57,716 bases of DNA, taken from IMG/VR virus record IMGVR_UViG_3300044759_000129, positions 1 through 57,716 of that record. The stretch is one strand, 5' to 3'. Each line of letters opens with the position of its first letter. Position 1 is the stretch's first letter. This DNA is from a virus. The position numbers were made by a program, and so were the translations under genes. Below, in pieces: positions 1-38,600 of this stretch. The notes beneath the pieces were generated by a model. It did not search any database and had not been told where the DNA came from. It was given only the letters and a program-made list of their open reading frames with translations.

Positions 1-127
1 GGTGGGGCGGGAACGGCGTCTGGGCAACCGACGAGACGAGACCACAGGGGTCCTCCGGCATAAGGTGCCAGGCTCCGGCCATCATGACCGCACACCCTGG
101 TACTTCCAGCCTACGCCGCCCAGACCT
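1..127. repeat. Terminal direct repeat, copy 1 (identical to 57590..57716); circular-assembly overlap
   Basis: The first 127 nt match the last 127 nt exactly when read by eye. 127 nt equals a common assembler k-mer, so this is most likely a circularisation signature. Confidence 0.9.
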
Positions 128-135
128 AATGTCAA
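108..135 (-). promoter_or_regulatory. Candidate sigma70-like promoter upstream of integrase (TTGACA-N16-TAGGCT)
   Basis: On the minus strand, TTGACA lies at 135..130 and TAGGCT at 113..108. The integrase start is at 57634, which equals position 45 of the repeat copy. Confidence 0.25.
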
Positions 136-162
136 GAACAAGTGTTCTATAGATGGTAGGCA

Positions 163-591
163 CTAGCGGGTGGCCAGGGCGGGCTGGCGCGAGCGGGCCA
201 CCGTCCAGAATGGCCCCTGCCATTCGGCCTCGGGTAGCATCCGGTCATGTCCCGGATGGCCGCCGTTCGAGGCCGGATGGCTGGCGGTTGCGGTCGGGTA
301 TCCGGACGGGGCGGACGGGTGGTCATCGTGAGTCCGCACGTAGGCATCCATGATCCGGATGGCTTCAGCCACCGTGACGGGCCGTTCCTCCTCTCCATAA
401 AAGGCGGAGGGCCGCACCCCTAGGACATTCGCAAAGCGCGGGAGCTGGTCACACTCGATCTGCCGAGCACCCCGTTCGTAGTGCGACAGCGCGGACTGTG
501 AGATGTGCAGCATCTCCGCCAATTCCTCCTGACTCAGCCGCCGCTCCCGCCTGATCTCTCGTAGCCGGTCACCTACCCGCTGGGCCGTCAT
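163..591 (-). CDS. XRE-family HTH repressor (cI-like)
   Basis: Internal ATG at 591 of ORF 163..636, preceded by GGAGGGA. HTH motif LSQEELAEMLHISQSALSHYERG. Divergent from the cro-like operon. Confidence 0.8.
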   Translation of the reverse strand: MTAQRVGDRLREIRRERRLSQEELAEMLHISQSALSHYERGARQIECDQLPRFANVLGVRPSAFYGEEERPVTVAEAIRIMDAYVRTHDDHPSAPSGYPTATASHPASNGGHPGHDRMLPEAEWQGPFWTVARSRQPALATR

Positions 592-731
592 TCCCTCGTC
601 CCTCCACCTGCTGCGCCATCTGCTTGAGTTTACCACGCAATGACATATTTCCTATGTACGTTTTTAGTACGAACTGTTATAATTCAAGGCCAGCGTGTTA
701 TGATTGCGGCGCTGGAGATTGGAGAGCAGAC
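592..731. promoter_or_regulatory. Divergent promoter/operator region of the lysogeny switch
   Basis: AT-rich gap between divergent HTH genes. Extended -10 boxes TGTTATAAT (675..683) and TGTTATGAT (696..704) on the plus strand; TGGTAAACT on the minus strand; repeated GTACG. Confidence 0.5.
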
Positions 732-920
732 ATGTCGCTGCTGGACCTCAAGCCGATCACCACCAACCTCGATCGCCGCCAGCTTGCCACCCTCAAGAAG
801 ATCGCGCGGGACCGAAGAATGACCCTCTCCGCGTGCATCCGTGACTTCCTTGAGCGGGGCCTGCACGACTGGCAGCGCGACGAAGCCCGACGTGCCAGCG
901 AGCGAGACGGTGTCGCATGA
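732..920 (+). CDS. Ribbon-helix-helix (CopG/Arc-like) protein
   Basis: Internal ATG of ORF 624..920 with GGAG upstream. Motif NLDRRQLATLKKIARDRRMTLSACIRDFLERGL. Confidence 0.7.
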   Translation: MSLLDLKPITTNLDRRQLATLKKIARDRRMTLSACIRDFLERGLHDWQRDEARRASERDGVA

Positions 921-1219
921 GCACCGTCCACACCCCCGGCGTTGGCGCCAGGCTGCGGGAATTCCGTACCCGCCGGGGCTGGTCCACCCGCAAGCTCGCA
1001 GCGGCACTCGGGATCTCTCAACCGATGATCAGCTACTACGAGCGTGGGCTCAGCAAGATCGACGCGGACTTCCTGCCCCAGATGGCGGATGTCCTGGGCG
1101 TGCAGCCCGGCGCTTTCTACGGGGAGGAAGAGCGGCCGATCAGTGTGGCGGAATTGCTTCGCCGCCTCGAAGAGGCCCTGCGCCAGCAGGATCAGCCCGT
1201 GCAGGAGCAGCCGACATGA
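917..1219 (+). CDS. XRE-family HTH protein (Cro-like), paralog of 163..591
   Basis: Motif WSTRKLAAALGISQPMISYYERG. Shares the tail FYGEEERPxSVAE with the repressor. ATGA overlap with the upstream gene. Confidence 0.8.
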   Translation: MSTVHTPGVGARLREFRTRRGWSTRKLAAALGISQPMISYYERGLSKIDADFLPQMADVLGVQPGAFYGEEERPISVAELLRRLEEALRQQDQPVQEQPT

Positions 1220-1356
1220 CCACCACCGACGTCGACCGCTTGATCAACGAAGCATTGTTGGCCTTGACCCGGGGCGATATGGCGAAGGCCGCCGCCCTCC
1301 TCGACGAAGCCGAGCACCTGATCCTCGAAGAGCAGGAAGAGGGGAAGGCCGCCTGA
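1216..1356 (+). CDS. Hypothetical small acidic protein (46 aa)
   Basis: ATG at 1216 overlaps the upstream stop, in the frame of ORF 841..1356. Confidence 0.4.
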   Translation: MTTTDVDRLINEALLALTRGDMAKAAALLDEAEHLILEEQEEGKAA

Positions 1357-1622
1357 TGGATACCTGGCAACGCTATCTGGCGCACGACCGCGAGAAGCGG
1401 GACATCTGGGACCGTGAACAAACGATCTGGATGGCCGAACAGGAGGACGTCGGGCACGCCACCACCGGCTTCACTGGCGCCGCCTGGGACGCCGTCACCG
1501 GCGATTACGCCGCGTGGCTCTGTGGCCATCGCCTGGGCTGGGCGAAGTCGCCGTCCGCCGCCGAGGACCTCATCCGTGCACAGCTGACCCGCGAGATCGA
1601 CCACCGCACCGTCACAACATGA
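1356..1622 (+). CDS. Hypothetical protein (88 aa)
   Basis: TGATG coupling at 1354..1358, in the frame of ORF 1044..1622. Confidence 0.5.
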   Translation: MDTWQRYLAHDREKRDIWDREQTIWMAEQEDVGHATTGFTGAAWDAVTGDYAAWLCGHRLGWAKSPSAAEDLIRAQLTREIDHRTVTT

Positions 1623-1626
1623 GCAC

Positions 1627-1663
1627 AAAAAAAGCCCCGACTGGTTGGAGCCAGGAGCGGGGC
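1627..1663 (-). terminator. Intrinsic-terminator-like hairpin oriented on the minus strand
   Basis: An A7 run (1627..1633) is followed by the hairpin GCCCCG-A-CTGG / CCAG-GAG-CGGGGC (1634..1663). Read on the minus strand this is a hairpin followed by T7. Confidence 0.4.
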
Positions 1664-1682
1664 GAGAAGGTGAAACACTGAA

Positions 1683-1940
1683 ATGATAGCGCCCACCCGG
1701 ATCCCCGTACCACCGTCCGCCGCGTCCCGCGTCAAATCCGCCGAGACCCACGAGCGCGAGCTCGACCTCGTCGTCGCCGCCCAGGCCTACGCCACCTGCC
1801 TGCGCCTGGCCGAGACCAAGCCCTCGGTCACCAACGAACAGCTCCTGCGCCACGCCGCCCACGTGCGCGGCTTCGCCAGTCAGCAGTACCTCGATTCCCT
1901 GTTCCGCGACATCCGAGACCGCCTGGAGCACCCGTCATGA
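1683..1940 (+). CDS. Hypothetical protein (85 aa)
   Basis: ORF track; ATGA overlap with the next gene. Confidence 0.5.
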   Translation: MIAPTRIPVPPSAASRVKSAETHERELDLVVAAQAYATCLRLAETKPSVTNEQLLRHAAHVRGFASQQYLDSLFRDIRDRLEHPS

Positions 1941-2206
1941 GCACCCGTCACGGAAGGCAGGTCACGCTACTCCTCGGCTCCGAGCTGGTTGCGCGGTTGG
2001 AGCAGGACGCCGAACAGCGTGCAATCCCGAGATCACAACTGGTGGACGAGATTTTGAGCCGCCACTACGGCGTCCCGATGACAAACCACATCCGTCGAAA
2101 GAGCGCCCGTTCGGCCGTTAAGGCCGCACTCCAGCAGGCGACACCCGAACAACTCGTTGCAATCCAGGAACTGCTCAACCTGACGCCGAACGGAGTGGGG
2201 AAATGA
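1937..2206 (+). CDS. Ribbon-helix-helix domain protein
   Basis: Motif VTLLLGSELVARLEQDAEQRAIPRSQLVDEILSRHY. Confidence 0.65.
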   Translation: MSTRHGRQVTLLLGSELVARLEQDAEQRAIPRSQLVDEILSRHYGVPMTNHIRRKSARSAVKAALQQATPEQLVAIQELLNLTPNGVGK

Positions 2207-2421
2207 CCACAGAGCCGCACGACGCCCTGGTCGCCGCCATCGGCGCCCGCCTCGACCTCGGGCAGGAGCTCCGCGCCGCCGACCGGCTGCCCCGCCTCGG
2301 GCAACGGAGCTACGGCTACGAAAGCTGGCTGTTGGCTGCCCGCGAGGAGCTGGCCGCAACCGTGGCCTACGTAAATGCCCTGGCTGCCCGCATTCGGGCC
2401 GAGAAGGGATACCCCGAATGA
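2203..2421 (+). CDS. Hypothetical protein (72 aa)
   Basis: ORF track; ATGA overlaps at both ends. Confidence 0.5.
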   Translation: MTTEPHDALVAAIGARLDLGQELRAADRLPRLGQRSYGYESWLLAAREELAATVAYVNALAARIRAEKGYPE

Positions 2422-2597
2422 AGATCACCGCGAAGGCCTATTGCGACCGCTGCGGCGACGAGATCCTGAGCGACCCCTGTAAGGGCAACGACTCCCCCTG
2501 CCTCGAGGGGAAGGACGGCCGGGCCCACTTCGCCTGCCTCCGCTGGGACCCCTACTGCTGTCGCTGTGGCCCGCGCTGGGCATTGGACCAGCTATGA
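2418..2597 (+). CDS. Small Cys-rich protein (59 aa, CxxC motifs)
   Basis: Hand-translated as MKITAKAYCDRCGDEILSDPCKG...CCRCGPRWALDQL. ATGA coupling at both ends. Below the ORF-track length cutoff. Confidence 0.4.
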   Translation: MKITAKAYCDRCGDEILSDPCKGNDSPCLEGKDGRAHFACLRWDPYCCRCGPRWALDQL

Positions 2598-2707
2598 GCC
2601 TGCTCGTCGCCTACGTCGTCCGCGTGCTGCTGCCCGTCGCCGTCGCCGCCGCCCTCGTGGTCGTCCTCTTGCGGCTCATCGCCCTCGCCTACTTTGGAGG
2701 ATCTTGA
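2594..2707 (+). CDS. Tiny single-pass membrane protein (37 aa)
   Basis: Hand-translated as MSLLVAYVVRVLLPVAVAAALVVVLLRLIALAYFGGS. Coupled starts and stops. Confidence 0.35.
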   Translation: MSLLVAYVVRVLLPVAVAAALVVVLLRLIALAYFGGS

Positions 2708-2883
2708 TGACGGAGTGCGTGCGCTGCCCAGCGCGACCACGACCAACCCCGTGCCACTCCTGCCGGCAGACCGGCCGCTTCCTGGATTTCGTCTGTGCGG
2801 AATGCCTCGGCAATGGCGTCCTCCTCACCTGTTGCAAAGACACCCCAGATGGGAGACCCATCGTTCGGGAGCACGCCTCATGA
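2707..2883 (+). CDS. Small Cys-rich zinc-ribbon-like protein (58 aa)
   Basis: MTECVRCPARPRPTPCHSCRQTGRFLDFVCAECLGNG, in the frame of ORF 2566..2883. Confidence 0.45.
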   Translation: MTECVRCPARPRPTPCHSCRQTGRFLDFVCAECLGNGVLLTCCKDTPDGRPIVREHAS

Positions 2884-3113
2884 AACCACCCAACGTCGAA
2901 GGCCTCGGCCTGCGCATCCTGGAGGCCGAGCAGCACCCCGCCCAGGTCCAGAACCCGAGACAGTCGAGCATTGAGCTCAAGATGTCGGTCAAGGGCGAGC
3001 GGTACTGGGACCTGAAGGCGTACTGCGATCACACCGACCCTGATGACGTGGCCGCTGCCACCGATTGGCTCCGCCAGATGGACGCCCTGCTGCGCCGAAC
3101 GTACCTCTCATGA
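2880..3113 (+). CDS. Hypothetical protein (77 aa)
   Basis: ATGA overlap at 2880, in the frame of ORF 2694..3113. Confidence 0.5.
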   Translation: MKPPNVEGLGLRILEAEQHPAQVQNPRQSSIELKMSVKGERYWDLKAYCDHTDPDDVAAATDWLRQMDALLRRTYLS

Positions 3114-3149
3114 TCCCCGCCAACAAATAAATTTGAAGGAGCGCCACTC

Positions 3150-3827
3150 ATGGCGACCGCTACCCCACGACCCCTCTCCAATGGCACCGTTCCGCAGGGT
3201 GCAACCATCACGATCAGTGCACCCAACTTTGAAACCCTCGCGTGCACCATTCGAGGCACGAGTCCCTATCTCCAGGCCCGCTTCGCCGAAAAAGCCATCG
3301 AGGCCATGAAGGCCAAGATGGCCGCTGGCTCAACCGCAAAGAAGGGGGCGAAGAAAGATCCCCGCGATTTCGACCTGGACTTCCGCCAGGCCCAGCACAT
3401 CAGCACCGAGGGCTGGAACGGGATTCCCGCTTCCGCCTTCCGCAATGCGGCCATCGATGTCTGCCGCATGACGGGCTACCAGATGACCCGGGCCAAGATG
3501 AGCCTGTTTGTCGAGGCCGATGGCTTTGATGCCATCGATGCCACCCCACTCATCCGCCTCGACGCCGCTGCCCCAGAACGAACCGAGATGCCGGTGCGCA
3601 ACAGCACCGGCGTGGTCGATATCCGCGTGCGGCCCATCTGGCGGGAGTGGAGCTGCCAGCTTCGCGTCCGCTACGACGCCGACCAGTTCACCGCCACCGA
3701 CGTCATGAACCTCATCCACCGGGCCGGGATGCAGGTCGGCATTGGGGAAGGGCGCCCCTTCAGTAAGGACTCGAACGGACTGGGCTTCGGCCTGTTCGCG
3801 ATCCAGAACGATGCCGAGGAGGCGTAA
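3150..3827 (+). CDS. Hypothetical early protein (225 aa)
   Basis: ORF track; GAAGGAG SD upstream; non-repetitive globular sequence. I cannot name a family. Confidence 0.7.
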   Translation: MATATPRPLSNGTVPQGATITISAPNFETLACTIRGTSPYLQARFAEKAIEAMKAKMAAGSTAKKGAKKDPRDFDLDFRQAQHISTEGWNGIPASAFRNAAIDVCRMTGYQMTRAKMSLFVEADGFDAIDATPLIRLDAAAPERTEMPVRNSTGVVDIRVRPIWREWSCQLRVRYDADQFTATDVMNLIHRAGMQVGIGEGRPFSKDSNGLGFGLFAIQNDAEEA

Positions 3828-3830
3828 CCC

Positions 3831-4328
3831 ATGGCTGACGTGCAACCAGGGACGATTGCCGGCATTCAAGCGGAGCAGGTGTCAGCTGAGCTCCTGCGCA
3901 TTCGGGAGGCGGGCGGTGTCCTGACACCACCGGCCGTCGTCGAGGCCGCCCGCCCTCCGGAGGCGCCCTTGCATCGAGCGTTCGAGTGGGACGACGGCCG
4001 CGCGGCGGAGCAGTACCGCCTCACACAAGCACGGCGGCTCATCCGCATGGTGATCCTGATCGATCCTCCAAGCGGGCGAACCGTCGCGCAATTCCACCAC
4101 GTCAACGTCCAAGCCGGCGGGCGGCGCTACGAGCCGATCGATTTCGTCGTCGCCACGCCCGACCTCTACGAAGCAGCCACGGGCGAGTTGTTGAGCAAGA
4201 TCAGGGGACTGCAGCACCGCCTCCGTGAGCTCGAAGGCTGGAGCGCCGCCGACCCCGCCCGGCAGCGGCAGCTCCGGCGCGCCGGCAAGGCCTTGCAGGA
4301 GGCCAGCACGGCACTGCAAGAACCGTAG
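3831..4328 (+). CDS. Hypothetical early protein (165 aa)
   Basis: ORF track. The motif FEWDDGRAAEQYRLTQARRLIRMV looks conserved and phage-like, but I cannot name a family. Confidence 0.65.
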   Translation: MADVQPGTIAGIQAEQVSAELLRIREAGGVLTPPAVVEAARPPEAPLHRAFEWDDGRAAEQYRLTQARRLIRMVILIDPPSGRTVAQFHHVNVQAGGRRYEPIDFVVATPDLYEAATGELLSKIRGLQHRLRELEGWSAADPARQRQLRRAGKALQEASTALQEP

Positions 4329-4890
4329 GCATGGCAGGCACGGCAACCCATGGCGAGGCATGCCTTGGCGCGGCGCGCGTGGCACGGCATGGCAGGCGAG
4401 GCGTGGATGGCACGGACCGGGAGGCACGGCTGGGCAAGGACCGGCCGGGCGCGGCGGGGATGAGGCATGGCATGGCAGGCGTGGCTTGCCGTGGCGTGGA
4501 CAGGACGGGCGAGGCGAGAGATTGGCGTGGCAAGGCAGGCATGGCATGGCCAGACCTGGCATGGCATGGCCGGGCGAGGCCGGGATAGGCAAGGCAGGCG
4601 TGGCTGGGCCTGGAAGGCCGGGCGAGGCGTGGCCTGGATTGGCAAGGCAGGCGAGGCCCGACGAGGCTGGGTGAGGCACGACGAGGCTCGACGCGACGAG
4701 GACCGGCATGGCAGGCGAGGCATGGCATGACCTGGCGGGACCTGGTTGGCACGCACCGGCGAGACGAGGCAAGGCGCGGCAGGCGGAGCGAGGAACGGCA
4801 GGGCCAGGCGGCGCAGGGCCAGGCGCGGCAGGCAAGGCGCGGATGGCATGGCCAGGCGCGGGTGGCACGGCAAGACGCGGCAAGGCATGA
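4329..4890 (+). repeat. Degenerate pentanucleotide (GGCNN)n tract, G-rich on the plus strand, non-coding
   Basis: Stepping 5 nt at a time gives GGCAT GGCAG GCACG and so on for more than 100 units. The core GGCATGGCA recurs. All six frames are open and encode only low-complexity peptides. Confidence 0.85.
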
Positions 4891-4916
4891 CAACAACGAG
4901 ACAAGGAGCACCCCAC

Positions 4917-5795
4917 ATGAGCACCGATATCGCGGTCCGATCCGTCGACCCGCCCGTCGGGCACGGGTTCAGCCACCAGAAGCGCGACCTCCTCAAAGCA
5001 ACCTATGCGCGCGGCACCAGCGACGACGAATTCGCCCTGTTCGTCGCCGTGTGCAATCGCACCGGCCTCGACCCCTTCTCCCGCCAGATTTACGCCATCC
5101 GCCGCTGGGACGCCCGCGAAGGGCGCGAGGTCATGACCATCCAGGTATCCATCGACGGCCTCCGCCTCCAGGCCGAGCGCTCCGGCAAGTACGAAGGCCA
5201 GACGTCCGTCATGTGGTGCGGTCCCGACGGCCAGTGGACCGACGTCTGGCTGCAGGACGACCCACCCGCAGCAGCGAAAGTCGGGGTGTACAAGACGGGT
5301 CACCGCGAGCCCACCTATGCCGTCGCCACCTATCGCAGCTACTGCCAGACCAAGAAGGGCGGCGGCCCCACCGTCATGTGGGGCAACATGCCCGACATCC
5401 TCCTCGCCAAGTGCGCCGAGGCCCTGGCCATTCGGAAGGTGTTCCCCGCCGAGACCAGCGGGTTGTACACCGGGGATGAGATGGCGCAGGCCGACAACGA
5501 GGTCATCCGCCAGGTCCTACCCGCCAGGTCCGAACCGATCGACACGGGCGACTCGGGTGAGATTCCCTTCGACGATTCCGACCCACCCGCACTCGATCCG
5601 CACCGCGTCGTGGCCTACAACCAGCTCATCCGCCGCGCCCTCATGGCCAACAACGCCGCCAACGTGGCAGGCCGCCCCGAACCCATTGACCTGGCCGCGT
5701 GGGAGATCCTGGCGGGTACGACGCTCGAGCAGTTGAACGACAAGGGCGCGCGGCTCAAGGCGAAGCTGCAGGAGATCGAAGCCGTCAGCGTCTAG
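4917..5795 (+). CDS. recT: RecT-family single-strand annealing recombinase
   Basis: AAGGAG SD plus ATG at 4917. Motifs [22 protein letters not shown] and [18 protein letters not shown]. Confidence 0.85.
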
Positions 5796-5806
5796 CACCA
5801 CATCTG

Positions 5807-5833
5807 GCCGGGCCCGCGCGCCCGGCTTTCTTT
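5807..5833 (+). terminator. Rho-independent terminator after recT
   Basis: Hairpin GCCGGGC-ccgcgc-GCCCGGC followed by TTTCTTT. Confidence 0.6.
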
Positions 5834-5862
5834 ATGTAGGGAATCGGTACAGGGAAGGGCTC

Positions 5863-6210
5863 ATGATCACCCACTTCGGCCCCGACCACCTCTGCCCCGA
5901 CTGCGACGAGGTGTTCATCTACTGGTGGGTCGGCACCCGGGGCGAGACCCGCTGCATGGAAGTGGAGCACTGCCGCCCCCATATGTGTGCCATCAGCCTG
6001 CAGCAGGCCGAGATCAGCAAGACGCGCTGCCCCGACTGTCGGCTCTCTGTCTATCAGTACCAGGACCAGCTCTACGACGAGGACGCCGCGCTGGTCCGCC
6101 ACCAGTGTGAACGCGCCAGCCAGCAGCAGCCAGCAGCCGTCCGCCCGCCCCCCGTCAAGGTGGCGCCCGTGCCCGCGCGACCCCTGCCCCCGCACGTTCC
6201 CACTCTCTAG
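5863..6210 (+). CDS. Cys/His-rich hypothetical protein (115 aa)
   Basis: ORF track; CPDCD...CRPHMC...CPDC motifs. Confidence 0.55.
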   Translation: MITHFGPDHLCPDCDEVFIYWWVGTRGETRCMEVEHCRPHMCAISLQQAEISKTRCPDCRLSVYQYQDQLYDEDAALVRHQCERASQQQPAAVRPPPVKVAPVPARPLPPHVPTL

Positions 6211-6224
6211 GTTAGGAAGCCACG

Positions 6225-7586
6225 GTGCAGATTGCCGAGCATAACACGGCCCTCGATGTTACGAAACCGTTTCGCCGGGACGGACTCGGCTTCCGCTACG
6301 CGCCGGTCGACGCCGCCGGGCACACCTACGGTGTCACCTTGAAGGTGGACTACATCCATCGCCGCTCCGACGAGATGACCGGCGAGGTCCTGGTCGAGGC
6401 CGACCTCCCCGGCATCCCCGCGCATGTGCATCAGGCCCGGCTCAACCTCACCTCCACCGTCAGCCGCGAGACCCTAGTCAAACATCTGCACCTTAAAACG
6501 AAGGACCGCGTGCCGTGGCGCGAGCTGATCGAGCTCTTCTGCGCCGCGGTGCTGCGCGCCGAGCGCGAGGGGGAGCCCTTCCTGCGCGTGGGCCAGATGC
6601 CCTACGCGGCGGACCCACCCGACCTGGTCAACCTCCTCGTGCCCGACCAGATGATCACCCTGCTCTACGCCGCCGGCGGCGTCGGCAAGGGCTGGATCGC
6701 CACGGCGGCCAGTGTCGCCGTCGAGAACGGCCTCAGCCTCGCCGGGCTCCCGGCCATGCAGCGCGAGACCCTCTACCTCGACTGGGAGGACACGCCGGCC
6801 CGCCTCAACCAGCGCGTGCAGATGGTCACCACCGGCCTGCGGCTCGAGGACTTCAAGCCCCTGCACTACCGCGCCTGTCGCGGGTCCCTGCCGCGCCAGA
6901 TCAACCAGGTGGCGCGCTACGTCACCGAGCACAACATCGGCTTTCTCGTCGTCGACTCGGTCGAGCTGGCCTGTGGCGCCAGCGCAGAACACCGCAGCTA
7001 CGAGGACAAGGCCCAGGAATTTTTCGAAGCGTTGCGCTATCTCGGCCCGATCGCGGTGCTCTGCATCGACCACATCAGCGCCGAGGCATCGCAGAACACC
7101 GGGGGCGCGAACAAAGCGTTCGGCTCCTTTCTCAAGATGGCGTGGGTGCGCTGCGCGTGGGAGGCGCGCAAGGATCAGATGACCGGCGCATCGACGACCC
7201 TGCTCGGCCTCTACAACACCAAGACGAATCACCGGAGCCAGGTGATGCCGCTGGGATTCGCCCTGGACTTTACCGAGAGACAGCAGGTGACCATCACACG
7301 GGCAGACGTCCGCGATTCAGACGAGCTCGTCAAACCCATGCCCACCGCCGAACGGATCGCCGCCGCGCTCTGGCACCGCACCAAGACGGTCAAGGAGATC
7401 GCGGAGGAGTCCGGCCTCAAGGAGGAGGTGGTGCGCACCACGCTCAATCGGGGGAAAGGGAAACGGTTCGAGACCGATCCCGTGGGCCGCTGGGGCCTCA
7501 TCAGCAACTCCCAGTCGAGAGCGCGCGACAACGGGTCAGACGCGAGGCTCGTCCAGCTAGATGACGGTAGCCATGTGTTCTTCTAG
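6225..7586 (+). CDS. RepA-like AAA_25 / RecA-fold replicative helicase-type ATPase
   Basis: GTG start. Walker A LLYAAGGVGKGW, Walker B FLVVDSVE. C-terminal HTH-like TVKEIAEESGL. Confidence 0.8.
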   Translation: MQIAEHNTALDVTKPFRRDGLGFRYAPVDAAGHTYGVTLKVDYIHRRSDEMTGEVLVEADLPGIPAHVHQARLNLTSTVSRETLVKHLHLKTKDRVPWRELIELFCAAVLRAEREGEPFLRVGQMPYAADPPDLVNLLVPDQMITLLYAAGGVGKGWIATAASVAVENGLSLAGLPAMQRETLYLDWEDTPARLNQRVQMVTTGLRLEDFKPLHYRACRGSLPRQINQVARYVTEHNIGFLVVDSVELACGASAEHRSYEDKAQEFFEALRYLGPIAVLCIDHISAEASQNTGGANKAFGSFLKMAWVRCAWEARKDQMTGASTTLLGLYNTKTNHRSQVMPLGFALDFTERQQVTITRADVRDSDELVKPMPTAERIAAALWHRTKTVKEIAEESGLKEEVVRTTLNRGKGKRFETDPVGRWGLISNSQSRARDNGSDARLVQLDDGSHVFF

Positions 7587-27914: not shown

Positions 27915-28687
27915 TGCGGGTCGACCCGGTAGGTGGGCTCGCCCTGTTTGGCGGCCTCCACCCGCGCGGCCTTCTCCCGCGCCGCCTGCACGCTCGGGGA
28001 GATGGGCACGCCGGCCCCGGCCGTCTCGATGACGGGCGCGGTGTAGACCTCCTCCGGCGGCTCCTCGGGGAGGTCGTCGAAGGTGATGGTGACGACCGAG
28101 CGGTCGCGGAGCCGGTCGCCGAAGTCGATGCCCATCTGCCGGCCCCAGGCGAAGATGTCCTCCGGCTTCATGCTGTGGTGCACCGTCATGTGCTGGAACA
28201 AGCCCTGCGGCTCGAGGAACACGCGGTTGTGGCAGTTGGGACAGCCGAACTCCTGGATGCGCAACCCCGGCTCCCGCAGCTGGGGGAAGAGCCGCGCGAG
28301 CTGGGCGTCCTGCTGGTACTCGGCGGGCAGCGTCGGCCAGTCGTGGCGCAGGTTCGTGACCCGGTGCCAGTGGTAGGCCAGGATCTGGGAGAGCGGGAAA
28401 AGGGCGCGGCCCTCCGGGTGGGTGAGGATGTTGTGCCAGTGGTTCTTGCTGTCCGGGCCGGTGGAGCCGAACTGGTCGAGCGGCGTCCAGCCGGTGCGCA
28501 TGAAGCCGATGGCGGCGGTGTCGGAGCTATCGCGCGGCTGGATCCAGCCGGCCTGCGCGTAGGGCTCGCCGGTGTGGCGTACGATGTCCGGCGCCTTCCA
28601 GTAGATGACTTTCTCCCACCGCGAATTGTTCAAGGGGCGGAAGAGGTCAGCGTGCTGCGGGTCGTAGGGAATGGGCGTCAGCGGCAT
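27911..28687 (-). CDS. Hypothetical protein with C2H2-like zinc finger (258 aa)
   Basis: CPNCHNRVFLEPQGLFQHMTVHH. Confidence 0.6.
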   Translation of the reverse strand: MPLTPIPYDPQHADLFRPLNNSRWEKVIYWKAPDIVRHTGEPYAQAGWIQPRDSSDTAAIGFMRTGWTPLDQFGSTGPDSKNHWHNILTHPEGRALFPLSQILAYHWHRVTNLRHDWPTLPAEYQQDAQLARLFPQLREPGLRIQEFGCPNCHNRVFLEPQGLFQHMTVHHSMKPEDIFAWGRQMGIDFGDRLRDRSVVTITFDDLPEEPPEEVYTAPVIETAGAGVPISPSVQAAREKAARVEAAKQGEPTYRVDPQ

Positions 28688-28690
28688 GAC

Positions 28691-29233
28691 TCAGTGGTTC
28701 CTCAGTGATTTCTCGCGGGCGATGCGCTCGGCCTCCCGCCACAGGTCGAAGGACACCGCCTGCACCTTCTGGGCCTCGGCCTCGTCGTCCATCCACTCCA
28801 CCAGGTGGCCGTACTCGGCCAGGAACGTGCCGGTGATGTGGAAGTCGAGACACTCGGGATGGAGGATCTCGTCCTGCTGGAAGCCGACCGGCTTCGGGGT
28901 GACGGTGTCCCGATGCTGGTACGGTCCACGAATCACCAGGTTCCCTTCCTGGGTGACGAGCTGATAGCGGGCCCGTTTCTTCGCCATCTCTTCGACGAAC
29001 TTCCGGGCGCAGCGCAGGGTGAACGCCCGGAAGTGGGACTCCGGTGGCAGCGGCGACAGGTCGTTGATGCGCTCGTTCCAGACCTGGCCGGCCTCCAGCC
29101 AGACGCCATGGACCCGCCGGGCCGGCCGGGCAGCCATGACGGGGTAGGCCATGTCCCAGTCGACGACGTAGTTGCCGGTCAGCTCGACCGGCTCCCACAG
29201 GCGCGGCGACTGGGGGGTTTCGATGAGGTGCAT
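28691..29233 (-). CDS. Hypothetical protein (180 aa)
   Basis: Internal ATG at 29233 of the long ORF 28691..30019, with AAGGA upstream. The upstream part of that ORF is antisense to the HNH gene. Confidence 0.55.
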   Translation of the reverse strand: MHLIETPQSPRLWEPVELTGNYVVDWDMAYPVMAARPARRVHGVWLEAGQVWNERINDLSPLPPESHFRAFTLRCARKFVEEMAKKRARYQLVTQEGNLVIRGPYQHRDTVTPKPVGFQQDEILHPECLDFHITGTFLAEYGHLVEWMDDEAEAQKVQAVSFDLWREAERIAREKSLRNH

Positions 29234-32442: not shown

Positions 32443-32646
32443 CTATACTCTCACGTTCCGTTTGAGACGGGACAGCTCCCGGCGGCCGACGTCGAAGAGG
32501 ACGTAGTTCCCATCACGGAGGCGGCGCACTTCCACGACACACAGCATCCCGCTCTGGCTCCGCAGGTGGGTAATGATGTCGTCCACCATCATGCGCTCGG
32601 TGGCGGTCAGGTGCTCGCCCCAGACCCGTGGCTCGGCCGTCCTCAC
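32443..32646 (-). CDS. Hypothetical small protein (67 aa)
   Basis: The GTG at 32646 overlaps the stop of the giant gene (GTGA). Confidence 0.45.
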   Translation of the reverse strand: MRTAEPRVWGEHLTATERMMVDDIITHLRSQSGMLCVVEVRRLRDGNYVLFDVGRRELSRLKRNVRV

Positions 32647-35600
32647 TCGCCGCCCCCGCCCAGCCGCTCGCGGCGCGTCCGCTGAAACTCCCGTCGCTCG
32701 CGGCTTCCCTCGCCGCGCTCCTCCCGCCGGGTATTCGCCCACTCGCCGTACGGGTCGGTTTCCTCATACTGGTCCCGCATGCGCTCCTGCGCCGGGGTCA
32801 GGGGCTCGCCCTTCCGCCACCGCTCGTAGTTCCGCGTGATCTGCTGCTCCAGCTCGACCGACTCCACCGCCTTACCGGTCTGGACATTCATCCAGCGCCA
32901 GGGCTGGCCGGGCTCACGGCGCATGGGCAATTCCAGCCGCGCTTTCTCCCCTTCCCGTTGCGTCTCCCGCATCTTGTTGATACGGTCGATGCGGGCAGCC
33001 GGCCCCAGCCGCTCCCACTCCGGGGTGCCGAGCTGACTGGCCAGCCAGACCCGGAACAGCTCACCAGACTCCTGCTGGAAGGCGCGGAACGCCTCGCGCG
33101 GGATCCGATTCGGCTCGACCCCTTGCGGCAGCCGGTCCTCCGGGAAGCCGGGCTGCGGGCCCCGCACCCGATTGGCATCGGCCCACTGCTGCAGCTTCGC
33201 CAGCTCGATCTCGGCCGGGTCCGTCGTCTCGGCCGAGGGACGGGTGATGTCCAATGCCCGCAGCCCACGCTGTCCCTCCGGACGCTGGACTTCCTGGCCA
33301 ACCGCATTCAGCTTGGCCGGGACCCGACCCGTCAAGCCCGGGATACTGGCGAGCACCCCCTCGACGGGACCTTCCGGGTCACGGATCACCTGGTCGCTGG
33401 CACGCGCCAGGAAGCGCAGGAACGCACTGGCCGGGAGCAGCATGGAGGGCGGCGTGCGCTCGGCATAGTCCTGGAATGCCTTCGGCCACTGGTCGGCGGG
33501 GCGCTCGAGGATGTTGAGCACGTCGGCCAGGCCCTGCGTAAATGGTTGATCGAGCACGCTGCGCGCCAACCCGAGCACCCAGATCCCCAGCAGCTCCTGC
33601 GCCTCCTGGGTCTGGCCCTTCTGCGCCAGATCGGCAGCAGTCGCGGCCCCCGCCAGGAGGGCGGAGAAGGGCTGCGCCCACTGATAACTGTGCCACTCGT
33701 CCCCGACCTTGATGCTGTAGGGCTGCTTCCCCTGCCGATAGAAGGCGTCCCGCTCCGCATCGTTGCGTGGCGGCGCCCCGGTAATCAGCCCCTGCTCTGC
33801 CATGCCCTTGACCCCGAGCAGGATGCCCGTACCGATCGAGAGCCGTCCCATATAGTCGGCGAACTCGCCCTGGGTCATCGTGCCGCGCGCCATGTCGATG
33901 ATCTTCGCTGGCAGCGTGGCCAGGGCCAGCGGGCTCCGCTCGGCCATGTATTTGGTCAGGTTCCACGGCGTCTGATGGAACGGCACGAGCACGCGCAGCC
34001 CGGGGCTCTGCTCCTTGAGCCGGGAGAAGCCCTCGACAAAGGTGCCCCCCTGCTGAAAGGTGTGATACTTCCCGGCCTCCATGGCACGGGCAATCATCTC
34101 CTCGGTCGGATTCGCCCGCAGGTCCGCGATGCGCTCGGCCAGCGCCTCCCCCGTCTTGCCTTCCATCTTTGCGATGCGGTACGCCTCGCCGTACAGCTCG
34201 GACATGCGCCCCATGGTGCTGTAGAACGCATCATTGGCGCGCAGCAGCCGACTGTGGATGTTGGGGACCAGGCCACGCACGTCATCCGGGATCTCTACGG
34301 GTCCCACCCGACCGGGCAGCCGCACCGGCTCCCGCAGCACCGCCCCCATGTCCTGACGCCCGACGATCTCCCCTTCGGTGAAGCCCTGCTTCAAGATGTG
34401 CAGCGCCTGCTTCGACGCATCCGGCAGCGCAGTCAGAGCGCCAATCAGCCGCTCCGGCACCTCACGCGCATAGCGCTCCTGCGGTGTACGCGTCACCACC
34501 GCTAGGGCCTTGCTGTACGGCGCCGCCGCCGCTGGCTCCACGATGCTCCCGGCCAGCGCCAGCCCCGAGGAGGCGAAGTCCCGGATCCGACCGACCGGAG
34601 AGGTCAGCAGATTGAAGTACAGATACCAGTTGAAGTAGTCCTTCGGGGTTGGACTGAAGAGCGCGCGGGCGGCGCCGGCCACGGCGTGGGGATCCTCCAG
34701 GTCGATGTCACGGAGCAGGCGGGCCAGGTCGTCGGTCTTGCCGGCTTTGCCCGCCATGCGGGTCAGCTCGTCCAGACGGCGAACGACCACACCGGCCGGG
34801 TCCTCCCCCACCACGGGCTGGCGGAACTGGCGGAGCGCGCGGCCCGCTTCCGCCGTCACACCGGAGACCACCTCCTGGAGTCCGCGGAAGCGCAGCAGCT
34901 CCTCGCCGAGGCGGAGCATATCGCCGCTCGCGGCGGCCGGGTCGGCGGTCCGGAAGGCCTGCTGCGCCTCCTGCACGGCCCGCGCCTGGGTGCCGAGGGC
35001 TTCCCGCAGGGCCAGCGCGGTCTCGGCGTTGACCGCATCGCCCGGCTTCCAGCGATCGGCAACACGCTGCGCGTCGATGCCGGAGTAGCGAGAAAGATCA
35101 CGAACCACGTCGTCGGGAATCACGCCCCGGCGGGCTTCCTCGAAGAGCTGCGGGTTGGCGTCGTACTCACGGAGAATCTGCTGCTGGATCTCCTCGGGGT
35201 ACTTGCGGAGCAGGATGTTGCCGGCAAACTCGGGGACGTCCTCGGTCGGCATGGGGCCGAGACCGGCGCGGAACGGACGATTGGCCCCACCGAGGGTGTC
35301 GGCCAGGTCCTCGAACTGGCGCCCGGCCCGGCCAAGGGCGCGAGCGGCGCCGTAGCCACCGGCGGCCCCGAGCGCGGCCCGGGCCAGCCGCTCCTGCAGG
35401 GTGGTGTTCTCGTCGGTGCCGAGCTGGGAGGCCCCGGCCCCGGCGGCGGCGCTGCCGAGTTCAGCGGCGAAGCGCGGGTCGGCGCGGCCGTAGAGCGCAT
35501 GGCCCCGGGTGAGGGAGGACTCGCGCATCCGGGGGGTGATGTCCATGCTGTGGACGGCCTGGGTCACCTCCTGCCCGGTGAGCGGGTCGATGGCGGGCGC

Positions 35601-38600
35601 CAACCGGGTCTCGCCGGGCGTCGCGCCGAAGGCTTTGCCGATGCGGCGCGCGGTGTTGGTCAGGATGTTGTCGTAGAAGGAACGCATCCCGGTCTGGGCA
35701 CGCCATGCGCTCTCCTCGAGGTCGGGGATACCAGCCGGACCCGCACCCATGATCTCGTCCTCGACACCGGCGTAGTAGCGCTGGTACTGCTGGTCGCCGG
35801 TGGTCCAGGCAATGCGGTCGTAGCCGTTTTCCGACGCCCAGCGCACCATGCGGTTCATGGCGAGGTCCGGCCACGACTTCGAGAAGGGGGCGGCGGGCAC
35901 AGCACCGGTGGGACGAAACTGCGCCGGCGTACGCTGGGACGGATCGAGCGGATCGAAGTAGCCGCTCTGGCGGCCGGCCTGGTGCCAGTCGCTCTGGATC
36001 TCCTCGATCATGAGCACCTTCGCACCGTCCTGCGCGGTGTGGTCCGAGAAGCGGACGTGGGCGAGGATGTTCTCCTGCGGGTAGTGCGGCGAGGTGTAGA
36101 CGTCCGGGCCGACGTCTGGCGTGCGCAGCAGCAGCTCGCGGTAGTTCTGACCACCGGGGAGGCGGTAACTCTGGTACTCGTATGAGGGTTGGAAGTTGTA
36201 GGCAGTCTGTTGGGCCGCATCCTGTGCGGCCTCCAGGGAGGGATACAGATCCCGGGTACCACCGGGCGAACGAACCACGTACCCGGAGGGGACCTGATCT
36301 ATGTCGAACCGCTGCCCACCAGGGAGCTCGGCACTCCACGCGGCGTTGCCGCCATACTGCCCTCGGCCACCACGCCAGTCGAGCATGGCTGAACCACGCG
36401 GGTCCACCTCCTCAACGGTGACGGCGTTGTTGCGCAGGTACTCCAGCACGTCGTCCTTCTGCAGCGGCGCGCCCGTCTCCCGAGCCCGGTCGAGCAGGAC
36501 GTCCATGCCGCTCCAGCGGCGCTCGTCCTCTTTGACCGGGCTATTGCGCAGCAGGCCCTCGATCTGGTCAGGGGTGGCGCGCTCGGGCATGCGCTGCTGC
36601 AGGGTCTCCTCGAGCCGCGAGAAGTAGACCGGGACGGTGGGCTCGGCGGGTTGCGCGTGCGGGAAGCGCTCGGCGCGCTCGGGTAAACCCGGTGGGAGCA
36701 GGCCCGCAATGTCGGGCTGCGTGAGCTGACGAGGGGCCGGCGGGATATCGGGGACGCGAGGAGTCGGGGCCATCTGCGCCGCACGACCCAGCGCCCCCAG
36801 GCCACGCACGCCAGCGACGGCCCCTTCCCCAGCCAGACCCACCGCATTGGTCGGGTCAATTCCGAGGCCGATCACGTTTCGGGTCACACCGGCCGCAGCA
36901 CTCGGTGCTACCCCGTAGGCCAGCGCCGCGCTGGCGAGACCCGTCGCCAGCTCGCTGGCCCCGAAGGCGGGGTGGCGCTCCGCGGCCCGGAACCCGGTGT
37001 CCTCGCCACGAGACCCGGCGGCAGCGGCGTTGTAGGCATCGGCGGCCGCCAGGGTCCGCGGATCCTCATAGCCATAGTCCGTGATCGCCTGCTGGAGCGC
37101 GTTCCACTCGGCCTGTGTTTCGGAGGCGATGACGTCCTCGGCCATGCCCGCTCGCGCCGCACCCGTCAGGGGGCCAGCCGCCGCGCCGACGATCTCCCGC
37201 AGGTTGGTCTGGCCACCGGGGACGGGAACTTCCACACTCCCCAGATTCCAGGCCGCCTCGCCCACGGCATTTGCCGCACCGCCGAGCGTCTGGCCGGCCT
37301 GATCCCAGAAGGTTTGCGGCTCGGCCGGCCCCTGCAATTCACTGACGGCGTCCTCGGCCCACTGCCGGTACAGCGCTTCCTCGTTCTCCGGTACCTGCGG
37401 AGCCGGCGTCTCCCGGGTCGGCAGGTTCAGTCCCTGGAGAGCCTCCCGGGTGGCGGGGCCGGTGATGACCTCCCGATTCTCACTCGTGTTCCCCTCGAGG
37501 GTGGCGACGCTCGGGACGGGCGACGCCGGGTTGTCCAGGTAGAGCACGCCGTTGATGCCGCTCCCGGCCAGACGACGGCTCGCCTCGTTCATCTGGCCTA
37601 TCGTCATCCAGTCACTGCCCCCGTACCGGGAGACGACCGTGCCACTGGTTCCGACGTGGTAGCGGCCATCCCGATAGGCGTCGGCCACGAAGTAGTGGCC
37701 CGCCGAGGAGATGGTGACCGGGTTGCCGCCCTGGATGTCCCGAATGATGGGGGCCTCGTCGGGCCGCTCGCCGGTGACGACGACGCGGTTCGGGATGCCC
37801 ATGCGGTCGAGCAGCCGACCCTGGTTGGCGATGCCGTTCATGCCGCCACCGGGGGTCCAGTTCACCTGTTTCGCCAGGTCGAGGGCCTCCCGCAGGGTGG
37901 GGTTCCGCCCCATGGCGCGGGCAAAGGCGACCGCTGCCGCCGGACCGCACGCGGCCGCACTTTCGGATGCACTCAGCGTGCGGTCGGCGTACTGGTTGGG
38001 CACGAGGTCCGGGTTGCCGACGGTGCCGGGGGCGTTGACCGCCGGGATGGTGCCGCGCTCCTGGATCTCCTGCTGCGGCGCCGGCTCCGGGAAGACGAAG
38101 TCCTCGGGGACCTGTGGGCCAAGGGTCTCGGGCCATTGCTCGGGTGGCGGCGGGGCGGGTGGGCCGAGGATCTCCAACCCCTGCTGGGGCTGCGCCACCG
38201 GCTCGAAGTCCTCGGGCATGGGGGGGCCAATGAATGGCTCGGGCTCCGGCTCGGCGATGCCCTGGGCGCCGAAGTTGATGTCGGTCCCCCAGTCGCTGCC
38301 ACCGGCCTGCGCCATGACCGGGTAGCGCATGCCGCCAAACGTGACGTAGTCGCCCTCGTCATTCTGGGCGACGACGGGTGGCGGCGCCTCTGCGCGGGGC
38401 GGTGGCTCCGGGGTGCGGCCCTGAAGGATGCGGTCCAGGTAGGTCCGGGTCTCCTGGAAGGGACGGCCCGAGCGGAGGGCGTCTACTGCACGGGGGCCAC
38501 CGTTGTAGGCCGTGAGCGCCAGGCGGTAGTCGCCACCGTACTGGGTGAGCAGGTCCCGCATGTGGAAGGCAGCAGCGTCGAGGCCGTGCTGCGGGTCGGT

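Follow-up and report, generated by a model that had tools for sequence, protein, structure and literature searches.

The window analysed in this work is a stretch of viral DNA of 57,716 nt (IMG/VR virus record IMGVR_UViG_3300044759_000129, positions 1 to 57,716), and the element under study is a G-rich tract of degenerate GGCNN pentanucleotides, located at 4329-4890 between a gene coding for 165 aa and recT. The original prediction, made from the sequence letters, had described the tract as a periodic, strand-asymmetric, non-coding element, and had proposed for it three roles: a replication origin, an array of Chi-like recombination motifs and a G-quadruplex switch. It suggested repeat, skew and BLASTN analyses as checks, and listed a protein-coding gene with synonymous-biased substitutions and an assembly artefact as findings that would speak against it. 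We describe here the anatomy of the tract, its evolution and its partner genes in other phages, which together make it very probable that positions 4329-4893 are the array of guide RNAs, named vrRNAs, of a phage Viral Interference Programmable Repeat (VIPR) system, of which vipr and a candidate accessory gene (vap) lie immediately upstream. The three elements follow each other with no gaps:

3150..3827, plus strand: vipr, 225 aa, a minimal Cas7/Csm3-like RAMP protein (phrog_4652), predicted to be the vrRNA-binding effector
3831..4328, plus strand: candidate vap (accessory gene), 165 aa (phrog_15946), winged-helix-like in its N-terminal part, then a long helical hairpin
4329..4893, plus strand: putative vrRNA array, (GGCNN)n, about 112 pentanucleotide steps, "staggered", about 9 modules, with no Rfam family inside

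The 562 nt of the tract at 4329-4890 are composed of 47% G, 26% C, 18% A and 8.5% T, corresponding to a GC content of 73%, with no AT-rich flank; the GC skew rises to +0.29 from a level of roughly -0.1 in the flanks, and the cumulative skew profile around the tract features only this local excursion. On the sense strand 82 GGC trinucleotides are found versus 13 GCC, at distances from each other of 5 nt (44 cases), 10 nt (14) and 4 nt (9). Identity at lag 5 reaches 0.55, the composition expectation being 0.33, and the strongest Fourier peak lies at 4.89 nt; Tandem Repeats Finder detects only weak arrays, with periods of 5, 10, 24 and 29. Rfam, scanned over 3800-5400 with E up to 10, gave a single sub-threshold match, which falls outside the tract. 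Coordinates, GGC bias, periodicity and skew agree with those first described, the count of 30 G against 14 C within 4561-4620 being exact, and the gene list indeed leaves this strand-specific element unexplained. The statement that it runs for more than 100 units holds for the five-base steps, about 112 of which can be counted, but only about 82 of these have the canonical GGC, and no more than 5 strictly perfect GGCNN units follow each other. The core motif GGCATGGCA is present at 4328, 4386, 4464, 4469, 4538, 4558, 4705 and 4719, with no further copy in the 57.7 kb of the window; the positions first given for it fall within a few bases of these copies, with the exception of 4843, which is only a partial match. 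The report of open reading frames in all six cases was not quite correct, as the plus frames contain 2, 2 and 1 stop codons; the three minus frames contain none.

Occasional phase slips had also been noted. Slips do exist, but they are not random, being largely the repetition of a single junction, GGCAGGC, in which a 4-nt unit, GGCA, is followed by GGC. This junction occurs 9 times in the tract (at 4333, 4391, 4474, 4534, 4593, 4646, 4710, 4778 and 4827, with spacings of 58, 83, 60, 59, 53, 64, 68 and 49 nt), versus only 3 times in the remaining 57 kb of the window. It delimits modules of about 59 nt, each consisting of about 11 GGCNN units plus one 4-nt GGCA unit, usually ending with GGCA(T/A) GGCA and restarting with GGC(G/A)N:

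4337..4395, plus strand: module 1, degenerate, between the junctions at 4333 and 4391
4395..4478, plus strand: module 2, irregular, 83 nt, with extra 4-nt and 6-nt units
4478..4538, plus strand: module 3, 12 units, NN: GT TT GT GT CA CG GA GA .. GT AA AG
4538..4597, plus strand: module 4, with its 59 nt and 12 units the best formed of all, NN: AT AT CA CT AT AT CG GA CG TA AA AG
4597..4650, plus strand: module 5, 4 + 7 units, kept in the related contig L124 at 6562-6619
4650..4714, plus strand: module 6, 13 units, many with GAC replacing GGC
4714..4782, plus strand: module 7, 7 + 7 units, kept in L124 at 6795-6857
4782..4831, plus strand: module 8, 10 units
4831..4893, plus strand: terminal modules, the last units being kept in L124; 24 nt separate the array end from the recT start codon

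The closest relative of the window is L124, a JGI metagenome contig, whose Vipr and accessory proteins are 94% and 78% identical to those of the window. Between its accessory gene and its recT lies a syntenic array of about 420 nt; the contig also carries an integrase gene and a helix-turn-helix (HTH) repressor gene, in the same position as the window repressor. The presence of a syntenic tract on this independent contig, along with cleaner versions in finished genomes of cultured phages, speaks against an assembly artefact. The two arrays differ by insertions or deletions of 9, 24, 1, about 50, 10, 47 and 5 nt; the GGC positions are identical in 172 of 190 cases (90.5%) and the NN positions in 25 of 67 (37%), in a comparison where the repeat alignment itself favours GGC matching. 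As these indels do not keep to multiples of 3 and GGC alone is conserved, whatever the frame, the tract is non-coding, as originally proposed.

At least four window modules are retained almost unit for unit in L124, among them those at 4538-4596, 4597-4649 and 4714-4781, while others are present in one of the two phages only. In L124 module 4 corresponds to 6741-6794, a copy with one GGCAT unit fewer and one NN change, 21 of 24 NN positions being matched. The order of the modules also varies, the L124 counterpart of module 5 (6562-6619) preceding that of module 4 (6741-6794), which is the reverse of the window. This turnover and shuffling at the scale of modules resembles spacer turnover.

A similar picture emerges when 144 tracts, with 4291 units in total, are pooled: C occupies position 3 in 94% of the units and T in 6%, and entropy amounts to 1.89 bits at N4 and 2.00 bits at N5. 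Purines prevail at N4 (A 33%, G 36%, T 18%, C 13%), while N5 is even. Over all loci, junction spacings peak at 39, 44, 49, 54, 59 and 64 nt, that is 8-13 units, and 244 of 304 4-nt junctions have A as their base. A conserved GGC scaffold with hypervariable NN is the pattern described for VIPR; judging from these substitutions, the variable bases would behave as an information-carrying code.

Tracts in other genomes were collected by scanning IMG/VR with the DNA pattern (GGCNN)7GGC alone, which resulted in at least 120 contigs, with a GC content between 39 and 76%; 114 of the contigs listed carry a tract by the criteria of the analysis, and the linkage counts reported below are among these. Flanking genes were called by a crude gene caller of our own, their products were clustered, and hidden Markov models (HMMs) were built from the neighbours. 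Two families recur: family A, corresponding to phrog_4652, which includes the window 3150-3827 protein, gp52 of Mycobacterium phage DRBy19 (YP_009956290.1) and g34 of Cyanophage Cy-LDV1 (DAZ90908.1); and family B, corresponding to phrog_15946, which includes the 3831-4328 protein, DRBy19 gp53 and Cy-LDV1 g33. The RAMP gene (family A) is present in 88 of the 114 loci, where it adjoins the tract on the same strand save in two cases; in several of the 26 loci lacking it the tract lies at a contig end. Family B adjoins vipr and the tracts in 30 of the 114. Denoting vipr, the accessory gene and the tract as A, B and T, the gene orders are A-T (25), T-A-T (16), A-B-T (14), T-A (12), T-A-B (5) and A-T-B (5). 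The G-rich strand is the mRNA strand: the gene upstream is encoded on it in 114 cases versus 18, and the gene downstream in 98 versus 31; tracts typically start a few tens of nt past a stop codon, and the next gene is usually found within about 100 nt of their end. Over about 140 tracts, the constant partner is thus the Cas7-like RAMP gene, on the same strand, and not recT, a helicase or a Rep gene. Of the syntenic tracts next to recT in related phages, for which a search had been suggested, that of L124 is the one example: recT is a neighbour only in the window and in this close relative.

Tract lengths among the IMG/VR loci listed range from 60 to 1600 nt, and some tracts feature 4-nt junctions spaced 5k-1 nt, while others do not. 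Very long arrays are found in L072 (minus orientation, 3155-4788, about 1.6 kb, 233 GGC units), L041 (minus orientation, 875-2430, about 1.5 kb) and L009 (6301-7019, 719 nt); those of L009 and L041 are nearly devoid of 4-nt junctions, so that guide boundaries would be marked there in some other way. The array at 468-968 of L099 contains a conserved 11-nt insert, GGCTACCTCA(G/A), every 12-17 units, in place of the GGCA junction, which may be a different processing signal or the tail of that lineage.

Among cultured phages, BLASTN with the tract alone, as originally suggested, detected a tract of about 220-250 nt in 27 cluster F Mycobacterium phage records (Cheoctovirus) and in Cy-LDV1. Independently of the repeat, tblastn with family A selected 31 records in the cultured-phage collection, namely 25 from Mycobacterium phages, 5 from Gordonia phages and Cy-LDV1. 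All of the 25 Mycobacterium records belong to the 27 with a tract detectable by BLAST; in the Gordonia phages Pipp and Ecliptus, missed by BLAST, a tract is located directly 3' of the family A gene, and direct reading of the Cy-LDV1 locus likewise finds the tract adjoining it. The DRBy19 and Brocalys tracts are far cleaner than that of the window, with perfect runs of 12, 11 and 9 units, and the DRBy19 junctions are spaced 60, 59 and 59 nt. In DRBy19 (order tract-A-B-xis) and in Cy-LDV1, where bet is 2.5 kb away, the module occupies a corresponding place in the early operon and precedes xis. In Gordonia phage Ecliptus (OP820472.1 9099-11950; L126 1241-4092) a vipr-array-accessory island with two HTH genes of its own is found outside the early operon, between the tail assembly chaperone and tape measure genes, and looks like a mobile, self-contained cassette. 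These other placements indicate that adjacency to recT is specific to the window lineage, and we regard it as incidental.

Two coding sequences (CDSs) annotated in GenBank as hypothetical proteins, DRBy19 gp51 (YP_009956289.1; L001 3039-3203) and Pipp gp43 (QFG09710.1; L125 3117-3386), lie wholly inside (GGCNN)n arrays. They are almost certainly spurious calls of open reading frames (ORFs), made because the tract has few stops in any frame; other cluster F records bear no annotation at the site equivalent to gp51. The closest relative of the window vipr in the cultured collection is that of Cy-LDV1 (BK059895.1 31484-32080), with 62% protein and 69% DNA identity. Cy-LDV1 was assembled from a Cylindrospermopsis culture and the window phage has 67% GC; the high GC content suggests that both infect a culture-associated heterotrophic bacterium rather than a cyanobacterium.

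The product of 3150-3827 matches phrog_4652 with E=1.9e-18. Families A and B have no Pfam, NCBIfam or PADLOC assignment, matches to these collections being empty or noise, and none of the 3972 database homologues of family A is named. The AlphaFold2 (AF2) model of the window protein (pLDDT 79.7, pTM 0.73), in contrast, could be readily placed by Foldseek: all of the top 46 PDB matches are Cas7-family RAMP subunits. Csm3 chains of five type III-A complexes are among them, as are type VII Cas7, Cmr4 and a chain of type I-E Cascade; the best match is 6xn3_F (E=1.6e-5, probability 1.00, TM 0.40-0.45). A fold search of BFVD resulted in uncharacterised viral proteins only. The C-terminal glycine-rich loop, GIGEGRPFSKDSNGLGFG (GIGEGRPF...GLGFG), is invariant across 40 homologues and is a typical RAMP G-loop. 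From the sequence and the model, the protein would be a minimal RAMP with an RRM core, G-loop and thumb, and no second RRM.

The product of 3831-4328 matches phrog_15946 with E=1.9e-19, and its 103 homologues are unnamed, save for one labelled "Mor family" by JGI. One of them, DRBy19 gp53 (L001 4006-4461), matches the PADLOC Csm3 model with E=0.0095 and 14 bits, a result which is probably noise, the window homologue giving nothing. Loci lacking phrog_15946 (L024, L055, L118, L071, L074, L108, L014, L028, L069 and L008) often contain, beside or between the tracts, another protein of 160-190 aa, with a winged-helix-like "..GYR(I/V)VE.." motif resembling vap1, the accessory protein of Escherichia phage SUSP1; by these sequence features, accessory genes appear to be interchangeable.

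VIPR, a CRISPR-like weapon of phages, was first described in a 2026 preprint (bioRxiv 10.64898/2026.04.26.720920); besides this, no relevant literature was found on mycobacteriophage pentanucleotide repeats, GGCNN or standalone Cas7-like proteins. The preprint describes Vipr as a minimal RAMP with a mass of about 20 kDa and one accessory gene (vap) at its locus, the proteins vap1-6 being predicted to interact with DNA; vrRNAs consist of 9-16 YNNGG (GGY/NN) repeats, encoded in long intergenic regions flanking vipr. The NN bases pair with double-stranded DNA following a "1-nt skip rule", with no protospacer-adjacent motif, and repress competing phages, satellites and prophages; no self-target is reported. 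Seven types, mostly found in phages and prophages, have been defined, and characterised type II systems are those of SUSP1 and of a Pseudomonas fulva prophage. In "staggered arrays", going by the fig. S18 legend, each vrRNA shares 1 nt with the next (bioRxiv 10.64898/2026.04.26.720920).

The window locus corresponds to this description in several respects, namely repeat anatomy, RAMP fold, homology to SUSP1 Vipr, near-obligate linkage on the same strand and substitution pattern. In SUSP1 (KT454805.2), a vipr gene of 195 aa (28474-29061, minus strand) is flanked by GGTNN arrays as published. The family A HMM matches SUSP1 Vipr with E=9.3e-46, and hhalign of the window clade against SUSP1 Vipr gives a probability of 95.6% (E=1.3e-8), over the C-terminal 55 columns only, from the thumb to the G-loop. 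The tract is made of GGY/NN pentanucleotides; vipr and the accessory gene form a compact locus, flanked by the array on the same strand; and carriage by phages is evident from the phage genes of the window, from the integrase and repressor of L124 and from the modules of cultured Mycobacterium and Gordonia phages. As far as can be judged from sequence, conserved GGC with free NN, sense orientation and modules of 5k-1 nt make up the published signature of a vrRNA array. If two vrRNAs in 5-nt phase overlap by 1 nt, as that figure legend has it, a GGCA|GGC junction and 5k-1 spacing are what should result; the spacing observed fits such an overlap, with RNA ends placed from the sequence. The window system would be a new member of a very recently described kind, possibly of a lineage unlisted so far.

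On this basis vipr, vap and the array would be transcribed rightward, within the early operon diverging from a CI-like repressor gene. By analogy with the type II systems of SUSP1 and P. fulva, the transcript would be cut into vrRNAs of about 50-65 nt, each GGCA|GGC junction representing, on the wording of the fig. S18 legend, the one-G overlap of two of them. Vipr subunits may then coat the repeat, each holding a GGY, while the NN bases would pair with double-stranded DNA in which matching bases are separated by one skipped base (xNNxNN...), usually a codon wobble position. Through such binding, which the accessory protein would enhance, the system is expected, as in the published examples, to repress the transcription of competitors, be they phages, satellites or prophages.

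The genes and signals surrounding the system are the following:

163..636, minus strand: CI-like HTH repressor (PHROG transcriptional repressor/regulator families, E about 1e-13 to 1e-14), context outside the system
4917..5795, plus strand: recT (Pfam RecT E=1.8e-27; PHROG RecT-like E=1.2e-67), downstream neighbour in the same operon
5806..5827, plus strand: terminator-like GC-rich hairpin and T run, 11 nt past the recT stop codon
6225..7586: AAA_25 helicase-like gene, the helicase of the replication-origin proposal

The repressor gene is divergent from the plus-strand early operon, which contains, in this order, small genes, vipr, the accessory gene, the array and recT. No sigma-70-like promoter site was found by a promoter scan of window 1-6300, and no terminator-like signal separates the array from recT. 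The hairpin at 5806-5827 is the sole terminator-like site of the plus strand in the first 6.3 kb, which suggests that the block from vipr through the array to recT ends a transcription unit. CI-like repressor, RecT and AAA_25 protein are the phage traits of the window. Two very long mechanical ORFs, 32643-39320 (minus strand, 2225 aa) and 41898-46052 (minus strand, 1384 aa), may code for tail or tape-measure proteins, or else be antisense artefacts due to the high GC content of the genome.

Natural targets were searched by scanning skip rules 0-3 over the window and the collected loci, using the NN strings of the modules, the target threshold of the preprint being an NN match of at least 80%. 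Under the 1-nt skip no self-target was found in these sequences, the best NN match of long modules being 0.73-0.75, the same as with control skip rules; perfect local matches were trivial self matches, under skip 3 only. Larger collections were scanned with exact patterns only. Exact 10-unit patterns from two window and two DRBy19 modules gave 0 matches in IMG/VR. The 9-unit core of module 4 gave 8 matches in GTDB, all from unrelated taxa, 5 of which were inspected and fall in unrelated host-type ORFs (acyltransferase-like, glycosyltransferase-like, alpha/beta-hydrolase-like) or in short ORFs; its 1 metagenome match is to the same contig as one of the GTDB matches. The 8-unit cores of three modules gave 5, 12 and 14 matches in IMG/VR, 0 of them with an NN match of at least 80%. 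All these counts are within chance range.

Several observations weigh against assigning the locus to VIPR. The system is known from a preprint. No natural target was found in the scans described; since the collection scans used exact patterns only, this absence does not argue against VIPR membership as such. No discrete conserved 3' tail, similar to the pseudoknot tail of about 40 nt of SUSP1 vrRNAs, is present in the window array. The accessory protein has no homology to SUSP1 vap1, and a DNA-binding fold is only weakly indicated by its model: although pLDDT is 95.6, no significant fold match was found in the PDB, the best being a MarR-like winged helix (1ku9_A, E=0.05). Finally, about one fourth of the window units are GAC, GGA, GGT or GCC and not GGC, irregular units of 4 and 6 nt occur, and part of the modules may have decayed.

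The last point, taken further, leads to the alternative that the whole VIPR array is decaying and largely non-functional, relaxed selection having eroded its GGC units so that most modules no longer provide working guides. The share of canonical steps, about 82 of about 112, a longest perfect run of 5 units as compared to 9-12 in DRBy19, the irregular units and the lack of targets would all be accounted for. Relaxed selection, however, is at odds with the conservation of GGC against L124, where NN is near random, with the retention of at least four modules almost unit for unit, and with vipr and accessory genes which are intact and conserved between the two phages. We therefore hold extensive decay to be unlikely.

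A further possibility is that the high-GC clade represents a VIPR variant with biology unlike type II, featuring a different skip rule or target class, and guide turnover by recombination between modules. The systems of this clade are found in the early lytic operon of temperate phages, among them cluster F mycobacteriophages, and bring together a phrog_4652 Vipr, a phrog_15946 accessory protein and staggered GGC arrays which lack a tail and reach 1.6 kb. A different skip rule or target class, if true, would account for the absence of target matches. As to recombination, module order differs between phages whose Vipr proteins are 94% identical, and the window array abuts recT. This proposal too appears rather improbable.

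The three roles originally proposed fare much worse. A replication origin, iteron-like or primed by an R-loop and relying on the AAA_25 helicase encoded downstream at 6225-7586, could draw on the G-rich sequence of the transcript (47% G, skew +0.29), which generally favours R-loops. In iteron origins a cognate Rep binds direct repeats of about 17-22 bp, which adjoin an AT-rich unwinding element; the tract has a 5-nt unit with only 3 fixed bases and free NN, no AT-rich flank, and no Rep gene conserved as a neighbour across loci. Over the 114 tract loci the conserved neighbour is the RAMP gene, in Ecliptus the module lies between tail genes, and the skew profile records nothing but the local excursion of the tract, which makes an origin highly improbable. 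Much the same holds for a two-tetrad G-quadruplex, or other non-B structure, tuning read-through into recT or its translation. GG doublets every 5 nt could form such quadruplexes and the array ends close to the recT start codon, but the C of GGC, not required for a quadruplex, is kept in 94% of the units, tracts precede many genes unrelated to each other and are also found past the last gene, and the predicted RNA fold of 4478-4714 is unremarkable (z = -1.84); a dedicated switch is thus very unlikely, though R-loops or quadruplexes might arise as a secondary side effect of a G-rich transcript.

The remaining proposal, a one-strand array of Chi-like or recombination motifs serving RecT or blunting RecBCD/AddAB, is suggested by the strong strand asymmetry and by the contact with recT in the window and L124. 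It is hardly credible, given that recT does not recur elsewhere (see DRBy19 and Cy-LDV1 above), that units with three fixed bases are too degenerate to be a Chi signature, and that the orientation of tracts follows the transcription of the adjoining genes; the distribution of GGCAGGC, 9 copies in the tract and 3 elsewhere, is not that of a genome-wide oriented motif. A Chi-like site would be a specific motif of 5-8 nt which the host RecBCD or AddAB recognises, over-represented and with a set orientation along the genome. Lastly, a low-complexity protein-coding region, to which the long ORFs crossing the tract (e.g. 4225-4674 on the plus and 3882-5303 on the minus strand) and the GenBank CDSs inside the DRBy19 and Pipp tracts might point, can be practically dismissed, as a 5-nt period rotates through all frames, the plus frames contain stops, and neither the L124 indels nor the conservation of GGC respect a frame.

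A TRAP-like ring-binding RNA, a RecT nucleation array, an array of primase sites, an array of transcription-pause motifs, a Rho-resistant spacer and a type III toxin-antitoxin RNA were also considered, and dropped on the basis of RAMP linkage and homology to SUSP1 Vipr.

VIPR is a newly reported way in which RNA reads DNA, through a gapped dinucleotide code on a pentanucleotide scaffold, and has been proposed as the ancestor of CRISPR effector proteins. The window offers a clear example, from an uncultured phage, of the tail-less staggered form of the array. The same module is carried by cultured, tractable cluster F mycobacteriophages and Gordonia phages, where parts of the array are annotated as hypothetical proteins, and these phages would allow direct tests of processing, targeting rule and inter-phage exclusion in actinobacteria. 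For annotation purposes, where a (GGYNN)n tract on the sense strand adjoins a gene coding for about 200 aa, without Pfam match and with a C-terminal G.G..RP...G.F motif, it should be read as a VIPR locus, and not called a CDS, an origin or a simple repeat.

Among known systems, targets of TRAP, the trp RNA-binding attenuation protein, are (G/U)AG triplets spaced 2-3 nt, wrapped around an 11-mer ring. The likeness to the window tract consists in a conserved triplet with two free bases, repeated about 11-12 times, each unit taken by one protein subunit. In contrast, the fold of TRAP is unrelated, its function is attenuation of a single operon, and its spacer bases carry no information, whereas the NN of the window appear to carry it.

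Type III toxin-antitoxin systems (ToxIN, CptIN, TenpIN) similarly feature a tandem-repeat non-coding RNA beside the gene of its binding protein, on mobile elements and in the context of phage conflict. Their units, however, are of 34-45 nt and fold into pseudoknots, as opposed to 5 nt in the window; the protein is a ToxN/Kid-like RNase and not a RAMP; and the repeats always lie upstream, with a terminator between them and the gene.

With class 1 CRISPR-Cas systems, in particular the Cas7/Csm3/Cmr4 filaments, the predicted effector shares the protein fold and, by analogy, possibly the principle by which each RAMP subunit binds a fixed number of RNA nucleotides, periodically interrupting pairing. 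The period is 5 nt in the window and 6 in CRISPR, and conserved bases are present in every unit of the window, while in CRISPR they are confined to the repeat-derived handle. No repeat-spacer array with repeats of about 25-40 nt is found in the tract, but only 5-nt units and higher-order periods of 24-29 nt; no PADLOC or NCBIfam match to a Cas or CRISPR family was obtained for the window proteins; and no Cas1/Cas2, Cas5, Cas6, Cas8, Cas10 or Cas11 gene is nearby, the neighbours being recT and the AAA_25 gene.

When compared with the published VIPR systems, the window has GGC where SUSP1 has GGT, as expected for a genome with 67% GC. Its modules abut and end with GGCA(T/A)GGCAG, no separate leader or structured tail of about 40 nt being present between guides; about nine of them are joined in one block of 562 nt, versus 1 + 3 separate vrRNAs in SUSP1; and its phrog_15946 accessory protein is unrelated to SUSP1 vap1. 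Shared by the two are what appears to be a single-RRM minimal RAMP with G-loop and thumb, homologous to SUSP1 Vipr, a guide region of GGY/NN pentanucleotides with hypervariable NN, and an array placed in intergenic DNA flanking vipr and an accessory gene, on the same strand, borne by a phage and free of self-targets. The spacing of the window junctions, moreover, fits "staggered arrays" with an overlap of 1 nt, as these are described in the legend of fig. S18.

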